Below, one piece after another: positions 29,435 to 47,259 of a stretch of DNA of 64,000 nt. This DNA comes from Betaproteobacteria bacterium. GTDB taxonomy: Bacteria; Pseudomonadota; Gammaproteobacteria; Burkholderiales; SG8-39. A program made the translations under genes and the position numbers. The stretch lies in assembly GCA_947482825.1 (NCBI GenBank), contig CANKMT010000002.1:5166-69165 (forward strand). The letters are read 5' to 3'. Each line of letters begins with the position of its first letter. Position 1 is the stretch's first letter. Under the pieces are notes generated by a model that was not told the DNA's origin, searched no databases, and saw nothing but the letters and a program-made list of their open reading frames with translations.

Positions 29435-29854
29435 TCAGTCTACCCAAGGATTCAGCAAGGTGATGCCGCAACCTTCGAAATCGCTCACGTTGTGGGTCGC
29501 AACGGCGAAGCGGGCACTGCGTGCTATCGCGGCGATCTGCGCATCGAATTGCGAGATCGGCCGGCCGGAGAGGTGACGGTCTGCAGCGATCTGCGCATAG
29601 GTGCGCGCGGCCTCTCCGCCGAACGGCAGCACCCGGCCTCCGAAGTCCTCGTCAAACATCGATTCCGCTGCAACCTCCAGTGCACCGCGCCGCTTGCCAA
29701 CGGGCAGCAGGGCGATTCCATGCAGAACCTCCGCCTGCGAGACGCTGGTCGTGTAGAGCATCGTCGCCGGGCGACCCGCGACCCATCGCGCAACTTCGGC
29801 TGCCGGCGCCGGCTTCATCAGCTCCGATATGACGTTGGTATCGAGAACGATCAC
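29435..29854 (-). CDS. vapC: PIN-domain toxin (VapC/FitB family)
   Basis: MIVLDTNVISELMKP N-terminus, conserved acidic residues, C-terminal ATHNVSDF. Confidence 0.9.
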   Translation of the reverse strand: MIVLDTNVISELMKPAPAAEVARWVAGRPATMLYTTSVSQAEVLHGIALLPVGKRRGALEVAAESMFDEDFGGRVLPFGGEAARTYAQIAADRHLSGRPISQFDAQIAAIARSARFAVATHNVSDFEGCGITLLNPWVD

Positions 29855-30135
29855 CTGGACGTGGCCTTGCGCCTCGCCTTTACCGCGGGCCTGCCCGCAG
29901 ACGGCGGTTCACGCATCGGCTCGCGTGCGGAGAGATCGAGATCGAGCCCACCGAGCGGCCGGAATCGCGCGCCGATCGCCGCGGCAAGGTCGCGCGGCGC
30001 GGCGTCTTCCTGCGCGAGCGCCGCTCTAAGGATAGTGCGGGCCTCTTCTTCCATCGATCGCTGGCGGTGCGCCGCACGCACCCGCAGGCGGGCCTTGGTA
30101 TGCGCGTCGAGGTTGCGAATGGTGATGCTGGCCAT
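29851..30135 (-). CDS. Ribbon-helix-helix antitoxin (FitA/Arc-like plasmid-stability-type)
   Basis: Internal ATG MASITIRNLDAHTKARLRVRAAHRQRSMEEEARTILR. 4-nt overlap with the PIN gene. Confidence 0.8.
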   Translation of the reverse strand: MASITIRNLDAHTKARLRVRAAHRQRSMEEEARTILRAALAQEDAAPRDLAAAIGARFRPLGGLDLDLSAREPMREPPSAGRPAVKARRKATSR

Positions 30136-30361
30136 GGTGCGGCTCCTGGTGCCATCAATGATTGCATTGTAGGCAAAGCTGCGAACCAAGGCAATCCTGG
30201 CCACCGGTGCGACAGGATTACTTTTCTGCCGCTCGCTGATCAGCGCCAGGCAATTGCTGCCAAATATCGCCCAAAGCCCGCGTCTTTACTGGCTCTCCAG
30301 CCAAATTGCTGCCATCACCACGATCGGAACAGGGGAACCAAAGTTCCCTCGTTACCCCCTC

Positions 30362-37791: not shown

Positions 37792-37867
37792 GTTTGTCTC
37801 CTTAGAACTGTTGTTTGGAGCGAGGGTAGCGGGACTGGGCGGGGGAGTAAATAGGAATGCTCGTTGC

Positions 37868-38335
37868 CTACTTGACCGTCCGTGGAGCTCGCCTTCTGGG
37901 CCGCAGCGCCCCGTGGCCGAGAAGATTCCTGAGCGGCAGGCCGGTTTTCATCCGATAGATGTCGAAGTCGCGGTCGATCGACAGGACCGCGTCCACACCC
38001 AGCCGGGCACAGGCTTCGGCAAGCGTCGCATCGGCGAAATCGAACGGCAGGTCCCGGTACTTGCGGACGATCTCTATGACGCGCCGCAGGCTTCCGGGCG
38101 CGAACTCGACGAGCGCGAGGCCACCTCGCTCCACCCATTCGAGGAAGTCGAGCTGTGCCGCGTGGCCCACGCGGGCGGCAAGCAGGGCCGTGGTTTCGGT
38201 GACTACGGCGGCGGTGGTGAGGAGCCTCACGTCGGGGTGATCGCGTAGCCAGGCCGCGACACGCAGATGGTGCGCGTCGCTCCGGTCGAACAGCGCTAGC
38301 AGCGGCCCGCTATCCGCGAGCGCGGCGTTTCGCAT
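37868..38335 (-). CDS. PIN-domain protein (putative toxin)
   Basis: 155 aa. LADSGPLLALFDRSD N-terminus and late FADATLAE...SIDRDF, consistent with PIN acidic residues. Overlaps the upstream RHH gene by 26 nt. Confidence 0.8.
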   Translation of the reverse strand: MRNAALADSGPLLALFDRSDAHHLRVAAWLRDHPDVRLLTTAAVVTETTALLAARVGHAAQLDFLEWVERGGLALVEFAPGSLRRVIEIVRKYRDLPFDFADATLAEACARLGVDAVLSIDRDFDIYRMKTGLPLRNLLGHGALRPRRRAPRTVK

Positions 38336-38558
38336 CCGTCAGGCCCGAATAGAGTTCGCGCCGGCGAGTCGAGAGATCGTCGCGGCCGCTCGCATGGCGG
38401 CCGAAAAGATCCTTGCCGAGATCGTACGGCGAGCGGACCTGCGCGAGGTAGTCACGCAATGCCGCCTGCACCAACGCGCTCTTGGTGGTGCCATCGGCGG
38501 CGCAGCGCCGCTCGAGCGCCGCCTCGAGTTCGGGGTCGAGCTTCACGGTCAGGGTCAT
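38310..38558 (-). CDS. Ribbon-helix-helix (CopG-like) antitoxin
   Basis: 82 aa. MTLTVKLDPELEAALERRCAADGTTKSALVQAALRDYL is a typical RHH N-terminus. Confidence 0.75.
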   Translation of the reverse strand: MTLTVKLDPELEAALERRCAADGTTKSALVQAALRDYLAQVRSPYDLGKDLFGRHASGRDDLSTRRRELYSGLTDAKRRARG

Positions 38559-38586
38559 GGCAGGCGTCCGGGGGTGGATGGCGCGA

Positions 38587-38608
38587 TAATACCAGAAGTA
38601 ATACCAGA
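38587..38608 (-). promoter_or_regulatory. Candidate operator/promoter of the RHH-PIN module
   Basis: On the coding strand TCTGGTATTA occurs twice 12 bp apart (TCTGGTATTAcTTCTGGTATTAT, including a TATTAT -10-like hexamer) 30-50 nt upstream of the RHH ATG. A third degenerate copy (TCCGGTATTG) is at 38627-38636. Confidence 0.35.
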
Positions 38609-38696
38609 CGCAGGCGGCCCGCCCGGCAATACCGGATAGGCCTGCGTCCGCATCGGCTTTCTCGCCGACAAGACGAGAACGACCACCGGTTCCGTG

Positions 38697-38897
38697 TCAG
38701 CGACTGCGCTTCGCACGGATCGCCCGCCGCGCTTCGGCCTTCGCGTTCGCGGCAACCGGTCCTGGCGGCGACCTGTCGCACCCGATCACCCCAAGCCGCG
38801 CGGCTATCTCGTATGAACTTGCCTCGGGCTTGCGCGCGAGATTGGTCGCGACCGCCGATTTGGCATTGCGCCGGCCTGTGGAGCGGGCGCCGCTCAT
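38697..38897 (-). CDS. Hypothetical small basic protein
   Basis: 66-aa ORF whose ATG overlaps the Uma2 stop (ATGA), which suggests translational coupling. No family recognised. Confidence 0.35.
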   Translation of the reverse strand: MSGARSTGRRNAKSAVATNLARKPEASSYEIAARLGVIGCDRSPPGPVAANAKAEARRAIRAKRSR

Positions 38898-39412
38898 ACC
38901 CGCGGAATCGACGGCGGGATCTCGACTTCGGCGACGAACGCGCTGCGGGCCAAGGCGCCTTCCGGGCCGATGAAGGACACGCCTTCGCGCGCGCGGACCA
39001 GCCAGACTTCCCGTGCCCCGGCGGCGAGAAATGCCTTCACCTTGGCATCGGTTTCCTTGATGCTGTTCGACGGCGAGAGGACCTCTACACAGATCTCAGG
39101 AGCGCGTCCAAACAGCGTATTGGCGGCCTGCTCCTGCACGAATTCAGACGAACCCCAGGCGACATCCGGCACCCGCACGCCGGCCGCCGTCAGAATGGAG
39201 CACCCCGTATAGACCAAGCCATCGCGCAGCCTCTCGCCCAGAAAATGCGCCAGGTGGGCCTGCACCGCGCCATGCCAGTTGTTGGCTGGGCGCATCTCGA
39301 TCGTCCCCTCCGCATTCAACTCGACCTTGTACGGAAGATCCCGAAGGCTTTCGTCATTGACGACCTCCGCCCAGCGTGCGACGAGCATTTCCCGTTTGCC
39401 GATGGTGCCCAT
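38894..39412 (-). CDS. Uma2-family (DUF820) PD-(D/E)xK endonuclease
   Basis: 172 aa. ...VELNAEGTIEMRPANNWHGAVQ...VPDVAW...EICVEVLSPSNSIKETDAKVKAFLAAGAREVWLV matches the Uma2 pattern. Confidence 0.8.
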   Translation of the reverse strand: MGTIGKREMLVARWAEVVNDESLRDLPYKVELNAEGTIEMRPANNWHGAVQAHLAHFLGERLRDGLVYTGCSILTAAGVRVPDVAWGSSEFVQEQAANTLFGRAPEICVEVLSPSNSIKETDAKVKAFLAAGAREVWLVRAREGVSFIGPEGALARSAFVAEVEIPPSIPRV

Positions 39413-39432
39413 GAGCCACTCTACGCCTGGCT

Positions 39433-39861
39433 CTAGCTCGGGCGCCGAGTCGCCGGCCAGTTCGTCACCTTCAGTCCCGGAACGCGCGAAAACTCGTCCA
39501 GATTGCGGGTCACCAGCCGCAATCCGGCCGCGCGCGCGTGTGCGGCGATCAAGAGGTCGTTGGCCCCGATCGGCCGACCGAGACGTTCAAGATGAGCGCG
39601 GATCTCTCCATAGTGACGGTCCGCGCCTGCTTCCAAGGGCAGCACGGCAAGTGCTTGCAGGATGCTCTCCAGTTGGTCGGTCAACCGCGGGGAGCCTTTC
39701 TTCGCCGCGCCGTAACGCAGCTCGCAGGCCACGACGATGCTCGTGCAAACCGCCTCGTCACCCGTCCGGGCAATGCGCCGCGCAACAGCGCCGCGCGGAT
39801 CGCGCACCAGATCGGACACGATATTGGTGTCCAGCAGGTATCGATGCACGGCCTTCTTCAC
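39433..39861 (-). CDS. vapC: PIN-domain toxin VapC
   Basis: YLLDTNIVSDLVRDP N-terminus, IGANDLLIAAHA, TRNLDEF. Confidence 0.9.
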   Translation of the reverse strand: MKKAVHRYLLDTNIVSDLVRDPRGAVARRIARTGDEAVCTSIVVACELRYGAAKKGSPRLTDQLESILQALAVLPLEAGADRHYGEIRAHLERLGRPIGANDLLIAAHARAAGLRLVTRNLDEFSRVPGLKVTNWPATRRPS

Positions 39862-39864
39862 GGT

Positions 39865-40095
39865 CTACAGATCGACTGGTTCGGGTGCACGGTCGCGCAC
39901 CCCGGGCATCGATTCTTCCAGCGGCCGCAGCGTTTCAAGCACCGCGAGAAGCGACCGGGGTTTTGCCGGGCGAAGGACGAGCGCGTCGCCCTCGCGGGTA
40001 AGCAGCGCTTCGCTTCCCGGCAACTCGAATTCCCGGGGAATGCGCACGGCCTGGTTGCGGCCGTTGCGGAACAGACGGACGTTGCGCGATTCCAT
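39865..40095 (-). CDS. vapB: AbrB/SpoVT-type antitoxin VapB
   Basis: VRLFRNGRNQAVRIPREFELPG motif. Its ATG overlaps the TAA of the RT ORF (TAATG). Confidence 0.85.
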   Translation of the reverse strand: MESRNVRLFRNGRNQAVRIPREFELPGSEALLTREGDALVLRPAKPRSLLAVLETLRPLEESMPGVRDRAPEPVDL

Positions 40096-41573
40096 TAAAT
40101 TTCCCAGCCTATGCCATGGCCTATGCTAACACGAAGTATCGGCTGTTCGTGTGACGACCTCGGTCCAGGGACGGCGGCGCCGCCGTTCCGTCTTCGGAAC
40201 GCAAGCGGCGCCGCGTGCCAGCGGTGCACCCGCAGCTCACCTTCTGCATGCACCGCCCTTCTCATCATGACCGGCCCTGGACGCCCTTGGCACACCCGCG
40301 CGCTCGGTGGAGTGCGCGGCTCAGGCACTTCGAGCGTACTGGCGAGACGAAAACCCGAGTTGTTGTTGCGGTTATCGGTCGTGTTCCTATTGCGCTTCGC
40401 GGAGCGCACGTTGCGCGGGTTGTTGTTCCAGGACCCGCCGCGGATCACGCGCTGAGGAGAGGGGGCCGGCCAGGCCTCCGGACAGGGGCCACCGGTCGCG
40501 GGGCCGCCATCGCCCCACGCCGGATCGAACCACCCGCCCCGGAAGATCGCGTGGCGCAGTCTGGCGTTGTCCGCGTGCCGGGCATGCGCCACCCATGAAT
40601 TGATCCGCTGTACCACTTCTCTCGTATCGACGCTACCCGCGCGCCAGCGATCGCGCAGACCGCGCAGGCGGTTGCGAAAACGCCGCACGTTGTCTGCGGG
40701 CAGCCTGCGCGCGCCGCCGGGATGGAGCACGAATCCGAGAAACTGCGCGGGGTCGCCGGTCAGCACGATCCGGGTTTTGCGCGGATGCAACATCAGGCGC
40801 CTTTGGGCGAGAAACTTTTCGATGCGCTCCCGCCAGTCGGCCAATACACCAGGATCGTCGTGAAACAACGCGAAGTCGTCCACATAGCGCACGTAGCCCT
40901 TCGTTCGCAGTACTTCCTTTGCGAAGTGATCGAGCGCGTCGAGGTACACGTTGGCGAAGAACTGGCTGGTCAGGTTGCCGATCGGCAGTCCGCGCCGGCG
41001 CTCGAACGGCGTGAACAGGTCGTCGCCCGGGAAATAGGCATTCACCGCCTCCTGCGGGTTCGAGCCGTCCACGATCCTGTCCAGCAGCGCGAGCGTGTCG
41101 CGGCAGGCGATGCGCCTTCGCAAATCGGCTTTCAGCACCGCATGGTCGATCGAGGGAAAGAACCGGTAGATGTCGCAGCGGAGTACCTGGCCGAACCGGT
41201 CGCGGTACTGCTCGAAGCGCGCCACCGCGCGGTGCGAACCCTTGCCTTGCCGGTTGGCGTAGCTGTCGGCGATGAAGCCTCGTTCGAACAGCGGCTCGAC
41301 CACCGCGCACACGGCGTGGTGCACGACGCGGTCGCGGAACGGCGCGGCCGAGATGAAGCGCTCCTTGGGGTCCTTGACCAGGAACGTGGTGTAGCCGCCG
41401 GGACGATAGCTGCCGTCGAGCAACTGCCCCTCCAGCCGCAATAGTTCCTTCTCCAGATTCGCCATGAACGCCGCGGCGCCCGGCTTCTTGCGCTTGCCCT
41501 TCACGGCTCCCTTCGCCGCCGCGTGCAGCGCGCGAAACGAGGCGATGGCCGGGAAAAGACCGTCAGCCCGCAT
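40095..41573 (-). CDS. DGR-type reverse transcriptase (ORF continues through the TR to 40095)
   Basis: FISAAPFRDRVVHHAV, LPIGNLTSQFFANVYL (the SQ motif typical of DGR RTs), catalytic YVRYVDDFALF. RT-like sequence ends near ...LRHAIFRGGWF (about 40500). The remaining roughly 130 codons are the TR plus low-complexity read-through. Confidence 0.9.
   Translation of the reverse strand: MRADGLFPAIASFRALHAAAKGAVKGKRKKPGAAAFMANLEKELLRLEGQLLDGSYRPGGYTTFLVKDPKERFISAAPFRDRVVHHAVCAVVEPLFERGFIADSYANRQGKGSHRAVARFEQYRDRFGQVLRCDIYRFFPSIDHAVLKADLRRRIACRDTLALLDRIVDGSNPQEAVNAYFPGDDLFTPFERRRGLPIGNLTSQFFANVYLDALDHFAKEVLRTKGYVRYVDDFALFHDDPGVLADWRERIEKFLAQRRLMLHPRKTRIVLTGDPAQFLGFVLHPGGARRLPADNVRRFRNRLRGLRDRWRAGSVDTREVVQRINSWVAHARHADNARLRHAIFRGGWFDPAWGDGGPATGGPCPEAWPAPSPQRVIRGGSWNNNPRNVRSAKRNRNTTDNRNNNSGFRLASTLEVPEPRTPPSARVCQGRPGPVMMRRAVHAEGELRVHRWHAAPLAFRRRNGGAAVPGPRSSHEQPILRVSIGHGIGWEI
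40296..40319 (-). other. GC-rich hairpin immediately downstream of the TR
   Basis: Coding strand CCGCGCACTC-CACC-GAGCGCGCGG: 10-bp stem with one mismatch and a 4-nt loop, about 12 nt past the end of TR homology. Confidence 0.4.
40331..40456 (-). repeat. DGR template repeat (TR)
   Basis: 126 nt homologous to 42672-42797. Contains nine AAC codons (reads QRVIRGGSWNNNPRNVRSAKRNRNTTDNRNNNSGFRLASTL in the VR frame). Confidence 0.88.
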
Positions 41574-41607
41574 GCTCCAAAGCTCGTTTCATGTGGACTT
41601 GGACCGC

Positions 41608-41856
41608 TCAAGCCGGCGGCGCCGGGAACTCGGCCACCGCGACGGCGCGATCGATGGCGACGACTTTCCGCAGCGCCTTGATCCGCTCGATCTCATGCAG
41701 GGTCCGTGCGGTGAAGTACGACTCGCCGCAATGCGGGCAAGACCACAGGGGAATGCGTTCGATCACCAGGAGCGACGCGCCCTGGCCGAAACTGCGAGTG
41801 ACTTTTCGTAGTTCGACCCCCTTCTTGGAGCATGACGCGCAAACGGTCTTAGGCAA
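41608..41856 (-). CDS. YgiT/MqsA-type zinc-ribbon protein (putative antitoxin)
   Basis: TTG start (MPKTVCASCSKKG...) overlapping the upstream stop by 8 nt. Two Cys pairs, CASC and CPHCGESYF. 82 aa. Confidence 0.72.
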   Translation of the reverse strand: MPKTVCASCSKKGVELRKVTRSFGQGASLLVIERIPLWSCPHCGESYFTARTLHEIERIKALRKVVAIDRAVAVAEFPAPPA

Positions 41857-42136
41857 GGTAGACGGTGATGACGAAAAGCGTGCCACTTTGATTGAATTTG
41901 ACGACCGCTTCGGCCGGCCTGTCGTCGCTCGTGCGCCCTTGGATAACGAGCTTGCTTTCGCGCGTTCCGGTGTCGCGCTGGCGCGCGATGATCGTGCCCG
42001 TGAGGAGGAGGGTTTCGAGATCGAGGATCGTGAGTTCGTCATCGTCGAGTTCTTCCGCGGCGTGAAGCGAAACGGCATAGTCGAGGGAGCGAACGCAATC
42101 GCGAACGTGGCTGATCGAACGCCGTGTTCCCGCCAT
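41849..42136 (-). CDS. DUF4258-like small protein (putative toxin partner)
   Basis: 95 aa. ...SLHAAEELDDDELTILDLETLLLTGTIIARQ...VVKFNQSGTLFVITVYLA resembles DUF4258 proteins, which usually precede YgiT zinc-finger genes. Confidence 0.65.
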   Translation of the reverse strand: MAGTRRSISHVRDCVRSLDYAVSLHAAEELDDDELTILDLETLLLTGTIIARQRDTGTRESKLVIQGRTSDDRPAEAVVKFNQSGTLFVITVYLA

Positions 42137-42218
42137 GTTTTGATTGTAACGTATTGCCTGTCGAGTGCCTGTTTGCGCCGCCTACGGAGCGCAAGCGGGC
42201 CCCGCTCGGCTCGATCAG

Positions 42219-42593
42219 TCAGCTCGCCGCGGCATCGTGCGCCTTCTTCCAGCCGCCGACCATGCGGCCGATTTCGTCGAGGGCTCGCGCCGCGCGCTCG
42301 TAGCGCGCGAGGTCAAGGTGGCGAAGGTCGGTTGCGAGCCGGAACTGGAACCGAAGTTTCTCGATGCCGAGATTCGCCTGCGCGAGAAGCCGCACACGCT
42401 CCTTTGTTGTGTAGGTCGCCTCGACAAATCGCTCCAACACGTCCATCGCGGTGGACTGGATACGGTCGCCGAGCAGGAATTTCTGGCTGCGCGGGAATTT
42501 TTCGACCGCCGGGACCAGCCACAGCATGAATCGGTACATGGCTTCGAGCGCGGGTCCCGTCCGCCTGGCGGCTTCGCGTTTTGGTTCCGGCAT
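42219..42593 (-). CDS. avd: DGR accessory variability determinant (Avd; four-helix-bundle, 23S-rRNA-IVS protein family)
   Basis: Start at ATG (MPEPKREAARR) 6 nt after GAAGGAG. ...YRFMLWLVPAVEKFPRSQKFLLGDRIQSTAMDVLERFVEA...LRFQFRLATDL... basic helical protein of about 124 aa between the target and the RT. Confidence 0.85.
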   Translation of the reverse strand: MPEPKREAARRTGPALEAMYRFMLWLVPAVEKFPRSQKFLLGDRIQSTAMDVLERFVEATYTTKERVRLLAQANLGIEKLRFQFRLATDLRHLDLARYERAARALDEIGRMVGGWKKAHDAAAS

Positions 42594-42606
42594 TTTCGAC
42601 TCCTTC

Positions 42607-42634
42607 AAAAAAATTCGGCCGCGCGGAGCGCGGC
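42607..42634 (-). terminator. GC hairpin plus T-run about 30 nt downstream of the VR/target stop
   Basis: Coding strand GCCGCGC-TCC-GCGCGGC followed by CGAATTTTTTT. It could act as an intrinsic terminator and/or as the hairpin that often follows DGR VRs. Confidence 0.6.
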
Positions 42635-42663
42635 AAGAGGTAAAGAGGCAAAGACCCAGGAGG

Positions 42664-43655
42664 TTACTGCTCGAGCGTCCTGGCGAGACGAAAACCCGAG
42701 TGGTCGTAGCGGAGATCGGAAGCGGACCTATTGCGCTTCGCGGAGCGCACGTAGCGCGGGTCGTAGTTCCAGGACCCGCCGCGGATCACGCGCTGAGAAC
42801 AATTCCCAGACGCGCATACGCTCCCATTGATCGGTGCGCCGTTGTAATTTCCATTCCAGCAATCCTCCGTCCATTCCCAGACATTGCCGAGCACGTCGAA
42901 GAGCCCGAATCGATTCGGCTTGAACGAACCGACCGGTGCCGGAAACCAGTGCCCGTCGTTGCAATTGTGCTTGTTGCTCCAACTACTCCGGTCATGGGTC
43001 GTTTGATCCGCCACGTTCGCGTATTCGCATGCCTGATCCGCGTCGTCGCCCCAGTACCTCGCGGCCGTCGTGCCCGCGCGCGCTGCGTACTCCCACTCCG
43101 CCTCCGTCGGAAGGCGGTACTGCTGACCGGTCTTCTTCGATAGCCATTCGACAAAGGCACGGGCGTCGTTCCAACTGACGCACACCACGGAGTGTGTGCC
43201 GGACTGTTCGTAGCCGGGCGATCGCCAACTCCGACCCGGACGCCTTTCGAACCTTCCGTCCAACTTTTCCCACGCGCGGCATCCCTGCGCGCCGGTATTC
43301 TTCTCCGCGTCCGTCTTATACCCGGTCTCGTCGGCAAACCGCCGGAACTGCGCGACCGTGACTTCTGTCCTGCCCATCACAAACGCATTCGCGATCGTCA
43401 CCCGATGCTGCGGCCCCTCGTCGTCGTGCCGCCCGGCCTCCGACGCAGGTGAACCCATCGTAAACGCCCCGCCGGAATCACCACCATGCGCTGGCAATCG
43501 GGACAATCCTGAAACACCGAGCCGGGCTTGCGCGCAGCCTGCTTCGCCTCATCGGCTTTCTTCGCGGGATCGGCCCTGGCCTTCTCATCGGCGGCCTTCT
43601 TCGCCGCGAGTTCGGCCTTCTTCTTGTCTTCGTCCTCCTTCTTCAGCGCGAGCGC
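42664..43655 (-). pseudogene. DGR target gene: FGE/SUMF1 (C-type-lectin fold) domain protein, 5'-truncated and frameshifted
   Basis: ORF 42664-43506 encodes the FGE domain (GNVWEWTEDCW ... RGGSW...GFRLARTLEQ). A different frame at 43468-43655 encodes ALALKKEDEDKKK...FQDCPDCQRMVVIPAG, which should continue as xFTMGSPASEAG. This implies a 1-nt indel near 43465-43475. That frame begins right after a TAG at 43656-43658 with no start codon. Confidence 0.8.
42672..42797 (-). repeat. DGR variable repeat (VR)
   Basis: Last 126 nt of the target gene. 112/126 identical to the TR by hand alignment, with 12 of 14 differences at TR adenines. Confidence 0.88.
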
Positions 43656-43657
43656 CT

Positions 43658-44134
43658 ATCGGCGGAATCCCGTTCTTCTTCGGCCCGGTGATCGGCGCAT
43701 TGGTGTTCGTCTTTTTCGTGGTCGCGTTGTCCGGCTTCACCAAGGCCTGGCTGCTTTACCTCGGCCTCTTTTTCCTCGCCATGGTGCTGTACGCGCCCGG
43801 GGGCCTGGCCTCGCTGCTGCTCATGCAGATCCCCGTGATCCGCGCCCGGCGCTTCGGCGAGCTGGTGGTGCCCTACTTGCTGGCCGGCGGCGCGGCGTTG
43901 GTCGCGCTCGCGGGCCTGATCGGCATCGTCGAAATGGTGTACCGGCTCTCCGAGCAGGGCGCGAGCACGGTCCTCACGGCGTTCGGCGTGTCGTTCGACG
44001 CGACCTCCGCGACGCCATGGGCCGCCTTCGGCCTGATGCTGGGCGGCGGCCTCGTGGCGCTCCGCTACGCCGCGCGTCTGGTCGGCGAGCGCTGGGGCGC
44101 GATCCAGTCCGATCTGCAGGGGCGTGCGGCATGA
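43658..44134 (+). pseudogene. 3' fragment of a LivM-type ABC permease gene
   Basis: Only the C-terminal part (about 158 aa: IGGIPFFFGPVIGALVFVFFVVALSGFTKAWLLYLG...) of ORF 43358-44134 looks like a permease. Upstream residues are antisense to the DGR target. Confidence 0.75.
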
Positions 44135-44910
44135 GCCCCTCGGCAACGGCGCCGGCGATCGAGCTGCGCGACGTGCACAAGAGCTTCGGCAGCACGCGGA
44201 TCATCCAGGGCGTCTCGTTGTCGATAGAGCAAGGCGAGCGCCACGCCATCATCGGCCCCAACGGCGCCGGCAAGTCCACGCTCTACAACCTGATTTCCGG
44301 GCGCTTCCCGGTGTCCTCCGGGTCGATCTGGCTCAACGGCGAGGACATCACCGGCCTGAAACCGTACGAGATCAATCGCAAAGGGCTGTCGCGCAGCTTC
44401 CAGGTCACCAACATCTTCCACAACATGACGGTCTACGAGAACATCCGCTGCGGCGTGCTGTGGTCGCTCGGCTACAAGTATTCGTTCTGGGACCGCATCA
44501 ACGGGCTGGCCGAAGTGCGGCGCCGCGCCGAGGAAGTCATGGAGAAGATCGGCCTGGAAAAGCGCCGCGCCCTGCTTGCGGGTGTGCTCACCTACGCCGA
44601 GCAACGCGCGCTGGAAATCGGCGTCACCATTGCCGGGGGCGCCAGCGCGATCCTGCTCGACGAGCCGACCGCGGGCATGAGCCGGTCGGAGACCGCGCGG
44701 GCGGTCGAACTGGTGCGCACGATCACCGAGGGCCGCACACTAATCATGGTCGAACATGACATGGGCGTGGTTTTCGACCTCGCCAACCGCATCAGCGTGC
44801 TGGTCTACGGCGAAATCATCGCCACCGGCAAGCCGGCGGAAATCCGCGCCAACCCGGCGGTGCAGGAAGCCTATCTTGGCGGCCTGCACAAGGATGACGC
44901 TCATGCTTGA
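44131..44910 (+). CDS. livG: ABC transporter ATP-binding protein (LivG type)
   Basis: ATG MSPSATAPAIELRDVHKSFG. GPNGAGKST, LTYAEQRALEIG, ILLDEPTAGM. Confidence 0.9.
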   Translation: MSPSATAPAIELRDVHKSFGSTRIIQGVSLSIEQGERHAIIGPNGAGKSTLYNLISGRFPVSSGSIWLNGEDITGLKPYEINRKGLSRSFQVTNIFHNMTVYENIRCGVLWSLGYKYSFWDRINGLAEVRRRAEEVMEKIGLEKRRALLAGVLTYAEQRALEIGVTIAGGASAILLDEPTAGMSRSETARAVELVRTITEGRTLIMVEHDMGVVFDLANRISVLVYGEIIATGKPAEIRANPAVQEAYLGGLHKDDAHA

Positions 44911-45598
44911 GGCCACCGATCTCCACGCGTACTACGGCAAGAGCCACATTCTGCATGGCGTCAACCTGAGGGTGGGCGAGGGCGAGATCGTCAGTCTGCT
45001 GGGCAGGAACGGCGTGGGCCGCTCGACCACGATCAAGGCGATCATGGGCATGGTGGACTGCGCCGGGTCGGTGAAATTCCGCGGCGAGGAGATGGTCGGC
45101 CTCAAGGCCTACCAGGTGGCGCACAAGGGGCTGGGCTACGTGCCGGAGAACCGCGACATCTTCCCAACGCTGACGGTGCGCCAGAACCTGCTGCTCGGGC
45201 AAAAGGGCAACCAGGAGTCCGCGCGCTGGAAGATGGAAGACATGTTCGAGCTTTTTCCCCGCCTGAAGGAACGCGCCGACACGCAGGCCGGCGTCCTCTC
45301 GGGAGGCGAACAGCAGATGCTCACTCTGTGCCGCACGCTGATGGGCGACCCGGCCCTGGTGATGATCGATGAGCCCACCGAGGGCCTGGCGCCCAAGATC
45401 GTCGAGCAGGTGGCGCGCCTGTTTGAGGAGATCCGAAAGCGCGGAGTGTCGATCCTGCTGGTGGAGCAGAAGCTGGCCATTGCGCTCGACATCTCCGAAC
45501 GACTGTACGTCATGGGCCACGGCAGCATCGTCTTCGAAGGCAAGCCGCGCGATGTGAGAGAGGATGCCGCCATGCGAAAGGAGTGGCTGGAGGTTTAG
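44894..45598 (+). CDS. livF: ABC transporter ATP-binding protein (LivF type)
   Basis: MTLMLEATDLHAYYGKSHIL (the alternative ATG at 44903 is equally possible). GRNGVGRST, LSGGEQQML, VMIDEPTEGL. Confidence 0.9.
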   Translation: MTLMLEATDLHAYYGKSHILHGVNLRVGEGEIVSLLGRNGVGRSTTIKAIMGMVDCAGSVKFRGEEMVGLKAYQVAHKGLGYVPENRDIFPTLTVRQNLLLGQKGNQESARWKMEDMFELFPRLKERADTQAGVLSGGEQQMLTLCRTLMGDPALVMIDEPTEGLAPKIVEQVARLFEEIRKRGVSILLVEQKLAIALDISERLYVMGHGSIVFEGKPRDVREDAAMRKEWLEV

Positions 45599-45754: not shown

Positions 45755-46045
45755 ATGCGGATCGTCGGGCGCGACAAGCTCGATGAGTTTGCAGGCGCAC
45801 ATCCAGACGCCCGCTCATGGATCGAGAACTGGCTTGCCGTTACAGAGGCAGCCCAATGGCGTACGCCCCAAGAAATCAAGGCGCTGCATTCGTCGGCGAG
45901 CTTTTTGCCGGAACGACTCGTGATCTTCAACGTAAAGGGCAATCATTACAGACTCGAAGTGCAGGTTGCCTACAACACGGGTTTGGTAATTGTCCGTTGG
46001 GCTGGGACGCACGCCGAGTACACGAAACGCAATACAGAAAAGTGA
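45755..46045 (+). CDS. higB: HigB-family type II toxin (RelE-fold mRNA interferase)
   Basis: 96 aa. MRIVGRDKLDEFAGAHPDARSWIENW...VIFNVKGNHYRLEVQVAYNTGLVIVRWAGTHAEYTKR matches the HigB_toxin family pattern. Confidence 0.88.
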   Translation: MRIVGRDKLDEFAGAHPDARSWIENWLAVTEAAQWRTPQEIKALHSSASFLPERLVIFNVKGNHYRLEVQVAYNTGLVIVRWAGTHAEYTKRNTEK

Positions 46046-46047
46046 AC

Positions 46048-47259
46048 ATGGAACTTCGACTCATCAAGAGCGACGAGCAATACCGCGCTTATCTCACCGA
46101 GGTAGACCGGCTCGCGACTGACGATCCCCTGCCGGGAACGTCTGAGGGTGATCGACTCGAACTCCTTGCGAAGCTGGTCGAAGACTACGAGAAAGAACGG
46201 TTCAGTTTCGCTCGACCCGATCCGATCGACGCCATTCTTTACCGCATGGAAGAGCAAGGGCTGCGCCAGAAGGATCTCGCTCCCATGGTGGGCGGCAAGA
46301 ACCGGGTTTCCGAAATCCTGTCACGCAAGCGCCCTCTTACGCTTTCGATGATTCGAGCATTGAGTGATTCGCTTCATATTCCCGCTGACCTGCTGATCAG
46401 GGAACCCGAGCCGCCTTCGTATGGTAGAGACGCGCTCGAAGAGACGATTGGAGACGACATTGCGCTACCTTATTTGATGAAGTCAGGGTGGTTCGGCGAT
46501 GAGGCGATATCCGAGGCAGCGATGACCGCAGTCGTGCAACGCTACCTCAGCCCCCCCGCAGGGCCCCTATATCTGCGACGCACGGTAACCTACGGTGCGA
46601 CGCCAGATACAAATAAAACGAAATTGCGATTGTGGGTCAGCAAGGTTCGCGACCTCGCCTTGAATTCACGCAAAGAGCGCGGCGTATGGAATCCAGACAC
46701 GCTGAACGAAGAATTTCTTTCCTATGTCGCGAAGCTGAGTTGGACGGAGAAAGGGCCAAAGCGCGCGCAGGAATTTCTTGCCGAGAAAGGGATCGCACTC
46801 GTCGTGTGGCCCGGGCTGCCGCAAACGAAACTCGATGGCGCCGCGATGCACGATGCGGATGGCGCGCCGATCATTGGCATCAGTATTCGCAACGATCGGC
46901 TCGACAGCTTCTGGTTCACACTTCTGCATGAGCTGGCCCACGCGTGGAAGCATCTTGCCGAACACGATATCGCGATTACCGACGAAAATCTGGAGGACGG
47001 TCAGGACGACGACTCCAAAGAAGTCGAAGCAAACCGGATTGCCAGAGACGCGTTCATCCCTCGGTCGCTCTGGAAGCGATCCGAAGCGTACTTGCGTCCT
47101 TCGCAGGAAACAGTATTCGCATTTGCCAATCAACTGCACATCAGCCCGGCGATCGTCGCGGGGCGTTTGCGCCGCGAGAAGACCGGCTACAACACCTTGA
47201 GCAAGCTCGTCGGCAATCGACAAGTGCGCAAGCTTTTCCCGGAAGTGAAGTGGGGATAA
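46048..47259 (+). CDS. HigA-like HTH antitoxin fused to an ImmA/IrrE-family zinc metallopeptidase domain
   Basis: N-terminal 125 aa resemble HigA (IKSDEQYRAYLTEVDRL...GDRLELLAKLVEDYE...GLRQKDLAPMVGGKNRVSEILSRKRPLTLSMIRAL). The C-terminal part carries HEXXH (FTLLHELAHAWKH) in an ImmA/IrrE-like context. Confidence 0.85.
   Translation: MELRLIKSDEQYRAYLTEVDRLATDDPLPGTSEGDRLELLAKLVEDYEKERFSFARPDPIDAILYRMEEQGLRQKDLAPMVGGKNRVSEILSRKRPLTLSMIRALSDSLHIPADLLIREPEPPSYGRDALEETIGDDIALPYLMKSGWFGDEAISEAAMTAVVQRYLSPPAGPLYLRRTVTYGATPDTNKTKLRLWVSKVRDLALNSRKERGVWNPDTLNEEFLSYVAKLSWTEKGPKRAQEFLAEKGIALVVWPGLPQTKLDGAAMHDADGAPIIGISIRNDRLDSFWFTLLHELAHAWKHLAEHDIAITDENLEDGQDDDSKEVEANRIARDAFIPRSLWKRSEAYLRPSQETVFAFANQLHISPAIVAGRLRREKTGYNTLSKLVGNRQVRKLFPEVKWG

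Follow-up and report, generated by a model that had tools for sequence, protein, structure and literature searches.

The described systems closest to the locus reported here are the prototype diversity-generating retroelement (DGR) of phage BPP-1, with the order mtd-avd-TR-brt (TR, template repeat), and the elements of Architecture B2, defined as avd-RT-TR (RT, reverse transcriptase) in the classification of Wu et al. 2018 (PMC5758913). The same work described non-conserved open reading frames (ORFs) nested between DGR components as "-X" variants, located mostly between the target and the core (PMC5758913). Our locus lies on the minus strand of a 64,000-nucleotide stretch of DNA, hereafter the window, from a Betaproteobacteria bacterium (GenBank assembly GCA_947482825.1, contig CANKMT010000002.1, positions 5,166 to 69,165), for which a sequence-only reading had proposed a DGR with a target of the FGE/SUMF1 type. 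We found that the region is a genuine chromosomal DGR of Architecture B2, arranged as target(VR)-avd-RT-TR (VR, variable repeat). Taken as a whole, the account that we consider probable is that this B2 element was active in the past, that its target gene has been damaged, and that the element is now idle or retired toward its own target.

The window element has the same core order and target class as the Architecture B2 DGRs with FGE-sulfatase-type C-type-lectin (CLec) targets, and it differs from them in that its nested ORFs are a toxin-antitoxin (TA) pair placed right at the avd/RT junction. With the BPP-1 DGR it shares Avd, a homologous RT, the adenine-specific transfer from TR to VR, a VR that forms the C-terminal tip of a C-type-lectin fold, a GC-rich hairpin past the VR, and the same set of RNA elements around the TR. 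In contrast to BPP-1, whose order is avd-TR-RT, the window has the order avd-RT-TR, which puts the RNA elements on the 3' side of the RT core, where the RT ORF runs into them; the window element is also chromosomal whereas BPP-1 is phage-borne, and its target is of the FGE-sulfatase type, not Mtd, and is truncated and frameshifted. A scan of one genome per species yielded 80 related loci with RTs 60–80% identical, all of them in metagenome-assembled genomes (MAGs) of many phyla, including Proteobacteria, Binatia, Acidobacteriota, Nitrospirales, and Spirochaetia, and these relatives share the B2 layout and the RNA module with the window. An adenine-biased TR/VR pair was detectable in 71 of the 80 relatives; among these 71, the TR lay wholly inside the RT ORF in 52, and 69 had the target upstream of avd-RT-TR. 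The element is an ordinary example, as its layout and target class are already catalogued. The four parts originally proposed for the cassette (target, Avd-like gene, RT, and TR) are all present, but their number was too low, because the cassette comprises six genes with the TA pair nested inside. The sequence-only reading had noted neither this pair, nor the position of the TR within the RT ORF, nor the damage to the target gene described below. On the minus strand, the core runs from the target (43655-42664) through avd (42593-42219) and the RT (from 41573) to the TR (40456-40330), and its features are as follows.

40330..40456, minus strand: TR, with 31 adenines and nine AAC codons (repeat search and MAFFT alignment)
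42671..42797, minus strand: VR, the last 42 codons of the target, ending 5 nt ahead of the stop
42664..43506, minus strand: downstream part of the target, an FGE-sulfatase/C-type-lectin-fold ORF (Pfam FGE-sulfatase, 6e-65)
42219..42593, minus strand: avd, encoding a four-helix-bundle accessory protein of 124 aa (NF033474 and Pfam bAvd; upstream ribosome-binding site (RBS) GAAGGAG)
40095..41573, minus strand: RT ORF of 492 aa (RVT_1; match to bRT, the Bordetella phage DGR RT (8ub7), of 1.3e-40 over residues 7-338)

The TR and the VR form a 127-nt direct repeat with 89% identity and no gap in the MAFFT alignment. Read on the minus strand, the two copies differ at 14 of the 127 positions, and 12 of these mismatches fall at TR adenines (31 A/127; hypergeometric P = 4.3e-7), which is a strong enrichment. 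In the reading frame of the FGE-domain ORF, each of the 12 adenine-site changes hits the first or second base of an AAC-type codon. The computed alignment gave the same tally as the hand alignment of the sequence-only reading, which had counted 14 mismatches, 12 of them at adenines, between two 126-nt copies (40331-40456 and 42672-42797); both copies are real, with the computed repeat running to 127 nt. The earlier figures of roughly 30 TR adenines and nine AAC codons likewise agreed with our counts, and the peptide translations of TR and VR were exactly reproduced. The VR occupies the 3' end of a target with the FGE/C-type-lectin fold, which tolerates variation. The adenine-specific divergence between TR and VR is a record of past mutagenic retrohoming. 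No third TR/VR-like copy was found in the 64-kb window, even with adenines ignored, and no VR-like sequence was found in the ~1.1 kb reachable beyond either window end.

The two mismatches outside adenines are a G>T change at VR 42721, a rare event at a third, synonymous codon position, and the pair T40338/G42679. In a mismatch profile of 72 TR/VR pairs from the clade, adenine mismatches extend up to 18 nt before the helix formed by the TR 3' end (P0, described below) and then cease, and non-adenine mismatches are nearly nil in the zone of adenine changes. In 63 of the 72 pairs, TR and VR disagree at the one base of P0 that is left unpaired. The window mismatch T40338/G42679 sits exactly at this base and is thus the clade's mark telling TR from VR, as in the concept of the initiation of mutagenic homing sequences (IMH*/IMH). 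Drift was rejected as an explanation of T40338/G42679, because the difference is clade-wide. The two repeats share 3' homology of the IMH/IMH* kind (3' segment TCGGGTTTTCGTCTCGCCAGG) that includes a base distinguishing TR from VR.

The RT from 41573 carries LPIGNLTSQFFANVYL and YVDD, as had been read from the sequence, and IGNLTSQ and YVDD fit the motif 4 [LIV]GxxxSQ and the YxDD of the DGR clade. Among solved structures, bRT was the closest relative (1.3e-40), followed by group II intron RTs (7e-17) and retron RTs (~1e-7). The product of the proposed Avd-like gene at 42593-42219 passed the profile check, scoring 107.5 bits with NF033474 DivGenRetAVD (cut-off 80) and 2e-18 with Pfam bAvd. The RT departs from only 2 of 130 clade-invariant columns and Avd from 1 of 33, in both cases as is typical of the relatives; judged by these alignments, neither protein appears to have decayed. 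Since the TR/VR mismatches are enriched at adenines, the RT resembles bRT, and the Avd profile matches, the region is a DGR, as had originally been interpreted.

The RNA surrounding the TR was examined by aligning the TR 3' end and the next 170 nt of the window with those of 55 relatives, and the alignment was analyzed by RNAalifold with 500 shuffles and with slid controls. The cis elements of the window, together with a hairpin downstream of the VR, are listed below.

40463..40472, minus strand: TGGCCGGCCC, which forms the 5' strand of a long-range duplex (10 bp) and lies 6 nt ahead of the TR (covariation)
40332..40339, minus strand: TR 3' end in helix P0 (G40339 and A40337-C40332, with T40338 unpaired), pairing with 40279-40286 (RNAalifold)
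40296..40319, minus strand: P1 hairpin (CCGCGCACTC-CACC-GAGCGCGCGG), immediately 3' of the TR (RNAalifold, covariation)
40278..40286, minus strand: 3' strand of P0 (GGGCGTCC) and the nearly invariant A40278 (alignment, RNAalifold)
40261..40277, minus strand: 3' strand of the long-range duplex (GGGCCGGTCA, 40277-40268) and a conserved TGATGAG (covariation, stop survey)
40176..40212, minus strand: terminal hairpin of the DGR RNA (GGCGCCGC-TTG-CGTTCCG-AAGA-CGGAACG-GCGGCGCC), conserved in position and form (alignment; minimum-free-energy (MFE) fold)
42618..42634, minus strand: GC-rich hairpin (GCCGCGC-TCC-GCGCGGC) followed by T7, 36 nt past the VR end

In this alignment, GCGTCCAGGGnCGGTCATGATGAG was almost invariant and was preceded by a hairpin whose sequence varied (P1), and RNAalifold paired the last ~8 nt of the TR with a conserved GAGCGT.C to form P0. 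For P0 and P1 together, 94.4% of the alignment cells were paired and compensatory changes occurred in 15 of the 17 pairs; none of the 500 shuffles reached the observed values, and the slid controls gave 33–52%. In P1 by itself, all 10 pairs showed compensatory changes across the 56 sequences. The long-range duplex is found at the same place clade-wide in many compensatory variants, with 93.0% of cells paired (76.0% when shuffled; slid controls, 25–47%), compensatory changes at 8 of 10 pairs, and again 0/500 shuffles as high. All three helices are present in the window, and their covariation is supported by 54–56 distinct sequences. The MFE fold of the window sequence contained the long-range (clamp) duplex, P1, and the terminal hairpin. 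In addition, a 21-nt stretch just 3' of the avd stop (42178-42198) resembles part of the terminal hairpin (40188-40208; 86%), which may be due to chance or may represent a remnant of an RNA element.

In the Bordetella ribonucleoprotein (RNP), a template:primer duplex is formed by TR117-129 and Sp47-56 with Sp A56 as the priming site, Avd binds a stem-loop located directly past the TR, and the cPRT-Stop duplex links sequences on the two sides of the TR; such RNA elements were predicted in 207 of 278 Avd-type DGRs (bioRxiv 10.1101/2023.10.23.563531). By analogy, our three helices appear to correspond one-to-one to these elements: P0 to the template:primer duplex, P1 to the Avd-binding stem-loop, and the long-range duplex to the cPRT-Stop duplex. 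A40278 would then be the candidate priming adenosine and the 3' strand of P0 the candidate primer strand, as counterparts of A56 and Sp47-56, and P1 is likely the Avd-binding stem-loop.

These RNA elements also account for the unusual C-terminus of the RT. The catalytic core comprises residues 1 to ~345 (41573 to ~40539), and the remainder of the ORF runs through the TR and the 3' RNA elements; a Pfam FGE-sulfatase match at RT residues 372-411 is the TR read in the RT frame. The placement of the RT stop is not conserved. In 29 of 77 loci the stop is the TGA in the invariant TCATGATGA (within 40261..40277 in the window, where it is out of frame), while it comes earlier in 38 and later in 10, and TCATGATGA occurs in all three frames relative to the RT. 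A TR-encoded C-terminal tail as a conserved protein feature was therefore rejected, because the stop falls before, within, or after the RNA module depending on the relative and the motif occurs in all three frames. Instead, beyond its RT core, the 492-aa RT of the window is RNA-constrained sequence in which the frame happens to remain open. The exact 492-aa product is absent from the records, because metagenome contigs break ahead of its stop.

Homing in BPP-1 depends on a hairpin or cruciform at the target site (PMC3240598). Of 87 VRs of the relatives, 52 are followed by a perfect GC-rich hairpin of 7 bp or more, compared with 19 of 435 control segments, and the hairpin offsets cluster at 33–42 nt, a range which includes the 36 nt of the window. 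By position and form, the window hairpin matches the DGR target-site hairpin/cruciform and is its putative counterpart; it may serve as a terminator too.

The observed parts, their covariation, and the adenine-specific footprint of 12 substitutions can be arranged in a mechanism in which we infer priming, Avd binding, and homing by analogy with Bordetella. In the 3' part of the avd-RT transcript, the TR would be flanked by structured RNA, with the 10-bp duplex clamping together the immediate flanks of the TR and the stem-loop right after the TR probably binding Avd. A template:primer duplex for cis-primed cDNA synthesis would be formed by the final ~8 nt of the TR with the conserved downstream strand ending beside the invariant adenosine. 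The RT-Avd complex would then copy the TR with misincorporation opposite adenines, and the cDNA would replace the VR at the target 3' end, guided by the shared 3' homology and by the hairpin 36 nt past the VR.

The target gene differed from this well-preserved core. All cis elements, RNA and DNA alike, are intact, as are RT, Avd, and TR, and the damage lies on the target side, where the following features were found.

43467..43655, minus strand: remnant of the upstream part of the target, encoding a stalk rich in K, A, and E and the conserved entry of the FGE domain (...KPGSVFQDCPDCQRMVVIPAG) (three-frame translation, tblastn)
43467..43470, minus strand: frameshift site at a G-run (GCGGGGCG), where the relatives need one base more (P-A-G-x-F-T-M-G)
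43724..44134, plus strand: C-terminal stump of a LivM-type ABC permease, the last ~130 aa only of a 423-aa permease (tblastn)

The downstream ORF encodes 280 aa from a TTG, or 264 aa from an ATG 48 nt further on, up to a TAA stop (42666-42664), and its FGE-sulfatase match spans positions 10-255 of the 255-position profile. The upstream remnant lies in a frame different from that of the remaining target, begins directly behind a TAG (43658-43656), and offers no start codon (ATG, GTG, or TTG) ahead of its QRM residues; KPGSVFQDCPDCQRMVVIPAG is thus encoded just upstream of the annotated target start, in the other frame. With the targets of intact relatives as queries, tblastn returned two high-scoring segment pairs that were contiguous in the query, with a frame switch at 43467-43470 and a net change of -1. 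The same frameshift sequence occurs in two further assemblies (L082 and L083), whose gene caller had split the gene in two. The closest full-length homologues are membrane-anchored stalk-FGE proteins of 479–490 aa (P0007, P0010, P0012, and P0018; 60–63% identity in the FGE domain), which share with the window the DCPDCPRMVVIPAGEFTMGSPASEA entry, the K/A/E-rich stalk, and the C-terminal ...RGGSW...GFRLA VR scaffold; the upstream frame of the window aligns to their stalk from 'ALAL' on. These homologues have a charged N-terminus and one transmembrane (TM) helix, both of which the window copy has lost. The short targets of other relatives (248–325 aa) have a signal peptide or a TM segment followed by ...DCPxCPxMVVIPAGxFxMGSP. 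Taken together, the alignments indicate that the target is 5'-truncated and frameshifted, with a 1-nt deletion and with ~150 N-terminal residues, including the membrane anchor, gone. Thus, of the FGE/SUMF1-type target gene of the original proposal, the domain and the VR at its end were verified, but an intact gene was not found, only a truncated and frameshifted remnant. The lack of an intact, expressible target gene bears on the present function of the element, not on its membership among the DGRs.

The truncated 5' end of the target abuts the livM stump head-to-head. Pfam recognised no domain in the stump; among annotated plasmid operons, tblastn placed its permease relative in an operon encoding a substrate-binding protein (SBP), LivH, LivM, and two ATPases. 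The region between 43656 and 43724 appears to mark a deletion junction, and one deletion that took both 5' ends would explain the configuration of truncated target and livM stump. The promoter of the target was presumably also removed by this deletion. In this history, the damage would have come after the period of activity, with the loss of ~150 N-terminal residues of the target and most of livM in one deletion and of a single nucleotide at the FGE-domain entry in a separate one. On the other side of the junction (43724-45598, plus strand), the LivG and LivF ATPase genes come after the LivM stump and look intact; the liv operon is left without its substrate-binding protein, LivH, and most of LivM, and the ATPases are orphans. 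The proteins diversified within this RT clade differ greatly, and targets of several relatives combine the FGE domain with others: Ser/Thr kinase-FGE, kinase-PEGA-FGE, WD40-FGE, and TIR-nSTAND1-FGE (among L001, L009, L066, and L074). Further relatives (L024, L063, L069, and L077) have 2–4 VRs per TR, some of them kilobases away.

We also looked for signs of present activity. Five independent metagenome contigs (three ENA assemblies and two Logan runs) encode an identical Avd and are 100% identical to the window over 1.2–3.1 kb, the whole VR included; the sole difference among the five contigs and the window is a C>T single-nucleotide polymorphism in the RT gene at 40707 (L081). Among ~15 billion proteins clustered at 90% identity, the target product has a cluster to itself, with the next homologue 70% identical. 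No VR polymorphism of the kind expected of ongoing diversification was seen across the five consensus contigs and the protein collection, and the frozen VR together with the lack of a variant cluster argues against ongoing diversification. The earlier statement that the element has been active in this lineage therefore holds for the past, as recorded by the adenine footprint, but not for the present, as the VR is identical in all five contigs and no protein variant was found. Given that all sampled copies have the same, frozen VR, the most likely present state of the element is idle or retired toward its local target.

The window is further distinguished by the two genes at the avd/RT junction, which are as follows.

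41849..42136, minus strand: DUF4258 ORF of 95 aa, a predicted toxin of the BECR/RelE superfamily (PF14076, 8.6e-12, 45.6 bits; cut-off 25)
41608..41856, minus strand: YgiT/MqsA-type zinc-finger ORF of 82 aa with CxxC...CxxC, a predicted antitoxin (TIGR03831, 44.8 bits; cut-off 20.2)

The TTG start of the zinc-finger ORF overlaps the DUF4258 stop, and the two ORFs overlap by 8 nt. DUF4258 belongs to the RelE/ParE BECR superfamily; DUF4258-MqsA fusions are known, and the target of the family is listed as unknown (PMC11980606). As in the type II TA modules of the DUF4258-MqsA kind, the window has a DUF4258 ORF followed by an overlapping YgiT/MqsA-type zinc-finger ORF; in contrast to them, the antitoxin of this predicted pair is the zinc-finger part alone (82 aa, with no helix-turn-helix (HTH) detected). 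In 72 of 79 relatives, avd and RT overlap or have no more than 38 nt between them, compared with 649 nt in the window, and tblastn found no match to DUF4258, vapB, or vapC in the 80 relatives (L001-L080). The pair is thus a predicted TA insert and not a component of the DGR, and it would have been inserted into the normally overlapping avd/RT junction. In two DGR copies of one alphaproteobacterial MAG (L005 5314-6001 and L019 5367-6001), a GIY-YIG-family ORF with ~100-nt flanking repeats occupies the same junction.

The neighbourhood is dense in TA modules and small modules related to them, in addition to ordinary metabolic genes. We observed a FitA-like ribbon-helix-helix (RHH) protein with a PIN protein (29435-30204), a PIN with an RHH protein (37868-38558), a Uma2 endonuclease (38894-39412), VapB(MazE/AbrB) with VapC(PIN) (39433-40095), and HigB with an HTH/Peptidase_M78 protein (45755-47259), the last in a low-GC patch of 0.55–0.57. 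The TAA of the extended RT ORF overlaps the vapB ATG by one base (TAATG; 40093-40097, minus strand), a geometry of translational coupling, here probably fortuitous and due to the shifted frame. The neighbourhood contained no gene for an integrase or transposase and no phage gene. ARAGORN detected no tRNA or tmRNA in the window, and Rfam at gathering thresholds gave no match in the whole window (no group II, retron, or other RNA family), so there is no clue to an integration site. A megablast search of 37800-43700 against plasmids gave no match, and phage records contained distant RTs alone (at most 41% identity, in the core region); on these comparisons, the element appears to be neither phage- nor plasmid-borne in known records. 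The GC content at third codon positions (GC3) of the DGR and TA genes (37800-43650) was 0.74–0.80, compared with 0.85–0.92 for the flanking metabolic genes; total GC was similar, and overall GC content marked no island. The lower GC3 is weak evidence, suggestive only, that the block was horizontally acquired.

Several other explanations have to be weighed against a DGR with a damaged target. We give virtually no credence to the reading that the locus is not a DGR, with the RT of a retron, a group II intron, or an Abi/DRT system lying by chance close to a duplicated gene fragment that has diverged. NCBIfam lacks a model for DGR RTs, and the top NCBIfam match of the RT is a group II intron RT/maturase (TIGR04416), but its 122 bits are far under the curated cut-off of 300, as are the matches to retron_St85_RT (45 against 235) and to the Drt2-5 models under theirs. 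The bRT match is 78 bits above that of any group II RT in the PDB, Rfam identified neither a group II intron nor a retron RNA, and the adenine-specific mismatches, Avd, and DGR-type cis elements are all found; this reading failed every test applied, and the RT class originally proposed stood up to the same comparisons. It is also very improbable that the frameshift is a sequencing or assembly error and that the target is really longer and intact. The site does lie in a homopolymer GGGG; however, this run is just 4 bases long, and two independent assemblies (L082 and L083) are identical there, with the gene likewise split by their gene caller. Even with the frame repaired, the target would have no start codon, no TM anchor, and ~150 residues fewer, and it would end at the stop beside the livM stump. 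We further regard it as unlikely that a working DGR is now diversifying a small, stand-alone cytoplasmic FGE/C-type-lectin protein, the picture implicit in the original reading. The frame stays open down to 42664, whether it is entered at 43506 or at the ATG 48 nt further on, and its product matches FGE-sulfatase profile positions 10-255; the RT, Avd, TR, RNA helices, and VR hairpin are all intact, and some relatives have targets of a similarly short length (248–325 aa). Those short targets, however, all have a signal peptide or TM segment and the DCPxCPxMVVIPAG strand, which in the window lies upstream in the other frame; in addition, the TTG start of the target has no properly spaced RBS, the VR is the same in five contigs, and there is no variant cluster.

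Some of our own data weigh against the idle, damaged B2 element as the full account. P0 is missing from the single-sequence MFE fold of the window, and the fold energy (z = -1.25) is not significant; the support for the RNA helices is comparative, not energetic, and the roles of the priming adenosine and of Avd binding would follow by analogy. The five contigs are consensus assemblies, at least three apparently from a single study, so that low-frequency VR variants could escape notice, and they may derive from one clonal population. The 264–280-aa FGE-domain ORF is open and could in principle be expressed from an internal start as a functional target. Undecayed RT and Avd would also be unexpected in an element that had long been useless; either the damage is recent, or the core is still useful, for example for a remote or other target. 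In keeping with the latter, the avd-RT-TR core might be kept for action in trans on an intact second target elsewhere, with the local VR dead. The lack of decay in RT and Avd and the relatives with several VRs per TR, some kilobases off, speak for this explanation, but we found no second VR in the 64-kb window or in ~1 kb beyond either end, and no target paralogue above 70% identity in the protein collection, although other proteins of the contig are represented there; we thus consider it quite unlikely. A related view, which we hold to be doubtful, is that the target-less core is kept by the addiction modules that have colonised it (DUF4258/YgiT at the avd/RT junction, and VapBC) or serves a remote target. 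Here, the vapB start overlapping the RT stop (TAATG) would couple antitoxin synthesis to RT translation, and, if true, the locus would be a natural example of TA-stabilised or trans-acting DGR machinery. The B2 DGR with a damaged target, idle or retired toward it, remains the account that we prefer.

The discovery value of the locus is small, since DGRs of the same architecture and target class are catalogued in hundreds. It carries two cautions for annotation, namely that a TR inside the RT ORF gives RT proteins a spurious FGE-sulfatase match at the C-terminus, and that a TR/VR footprint is no proof of an intact target or of an active element. For the family of avd-RT-TR elements, our data provide a covariation-backed map of the cis RNA, consisting of the clamp, the stem-loop, and the TR:primer duplex with its invariant A and its mismatched base. 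The map would carry the model built on the Bordetella RNP over to a large clade of chromosomal elements, and it offers concrete sites to mutate. The locus also represents a snapshot of DGR decay, in which the target side decays first and the core is still pristine.

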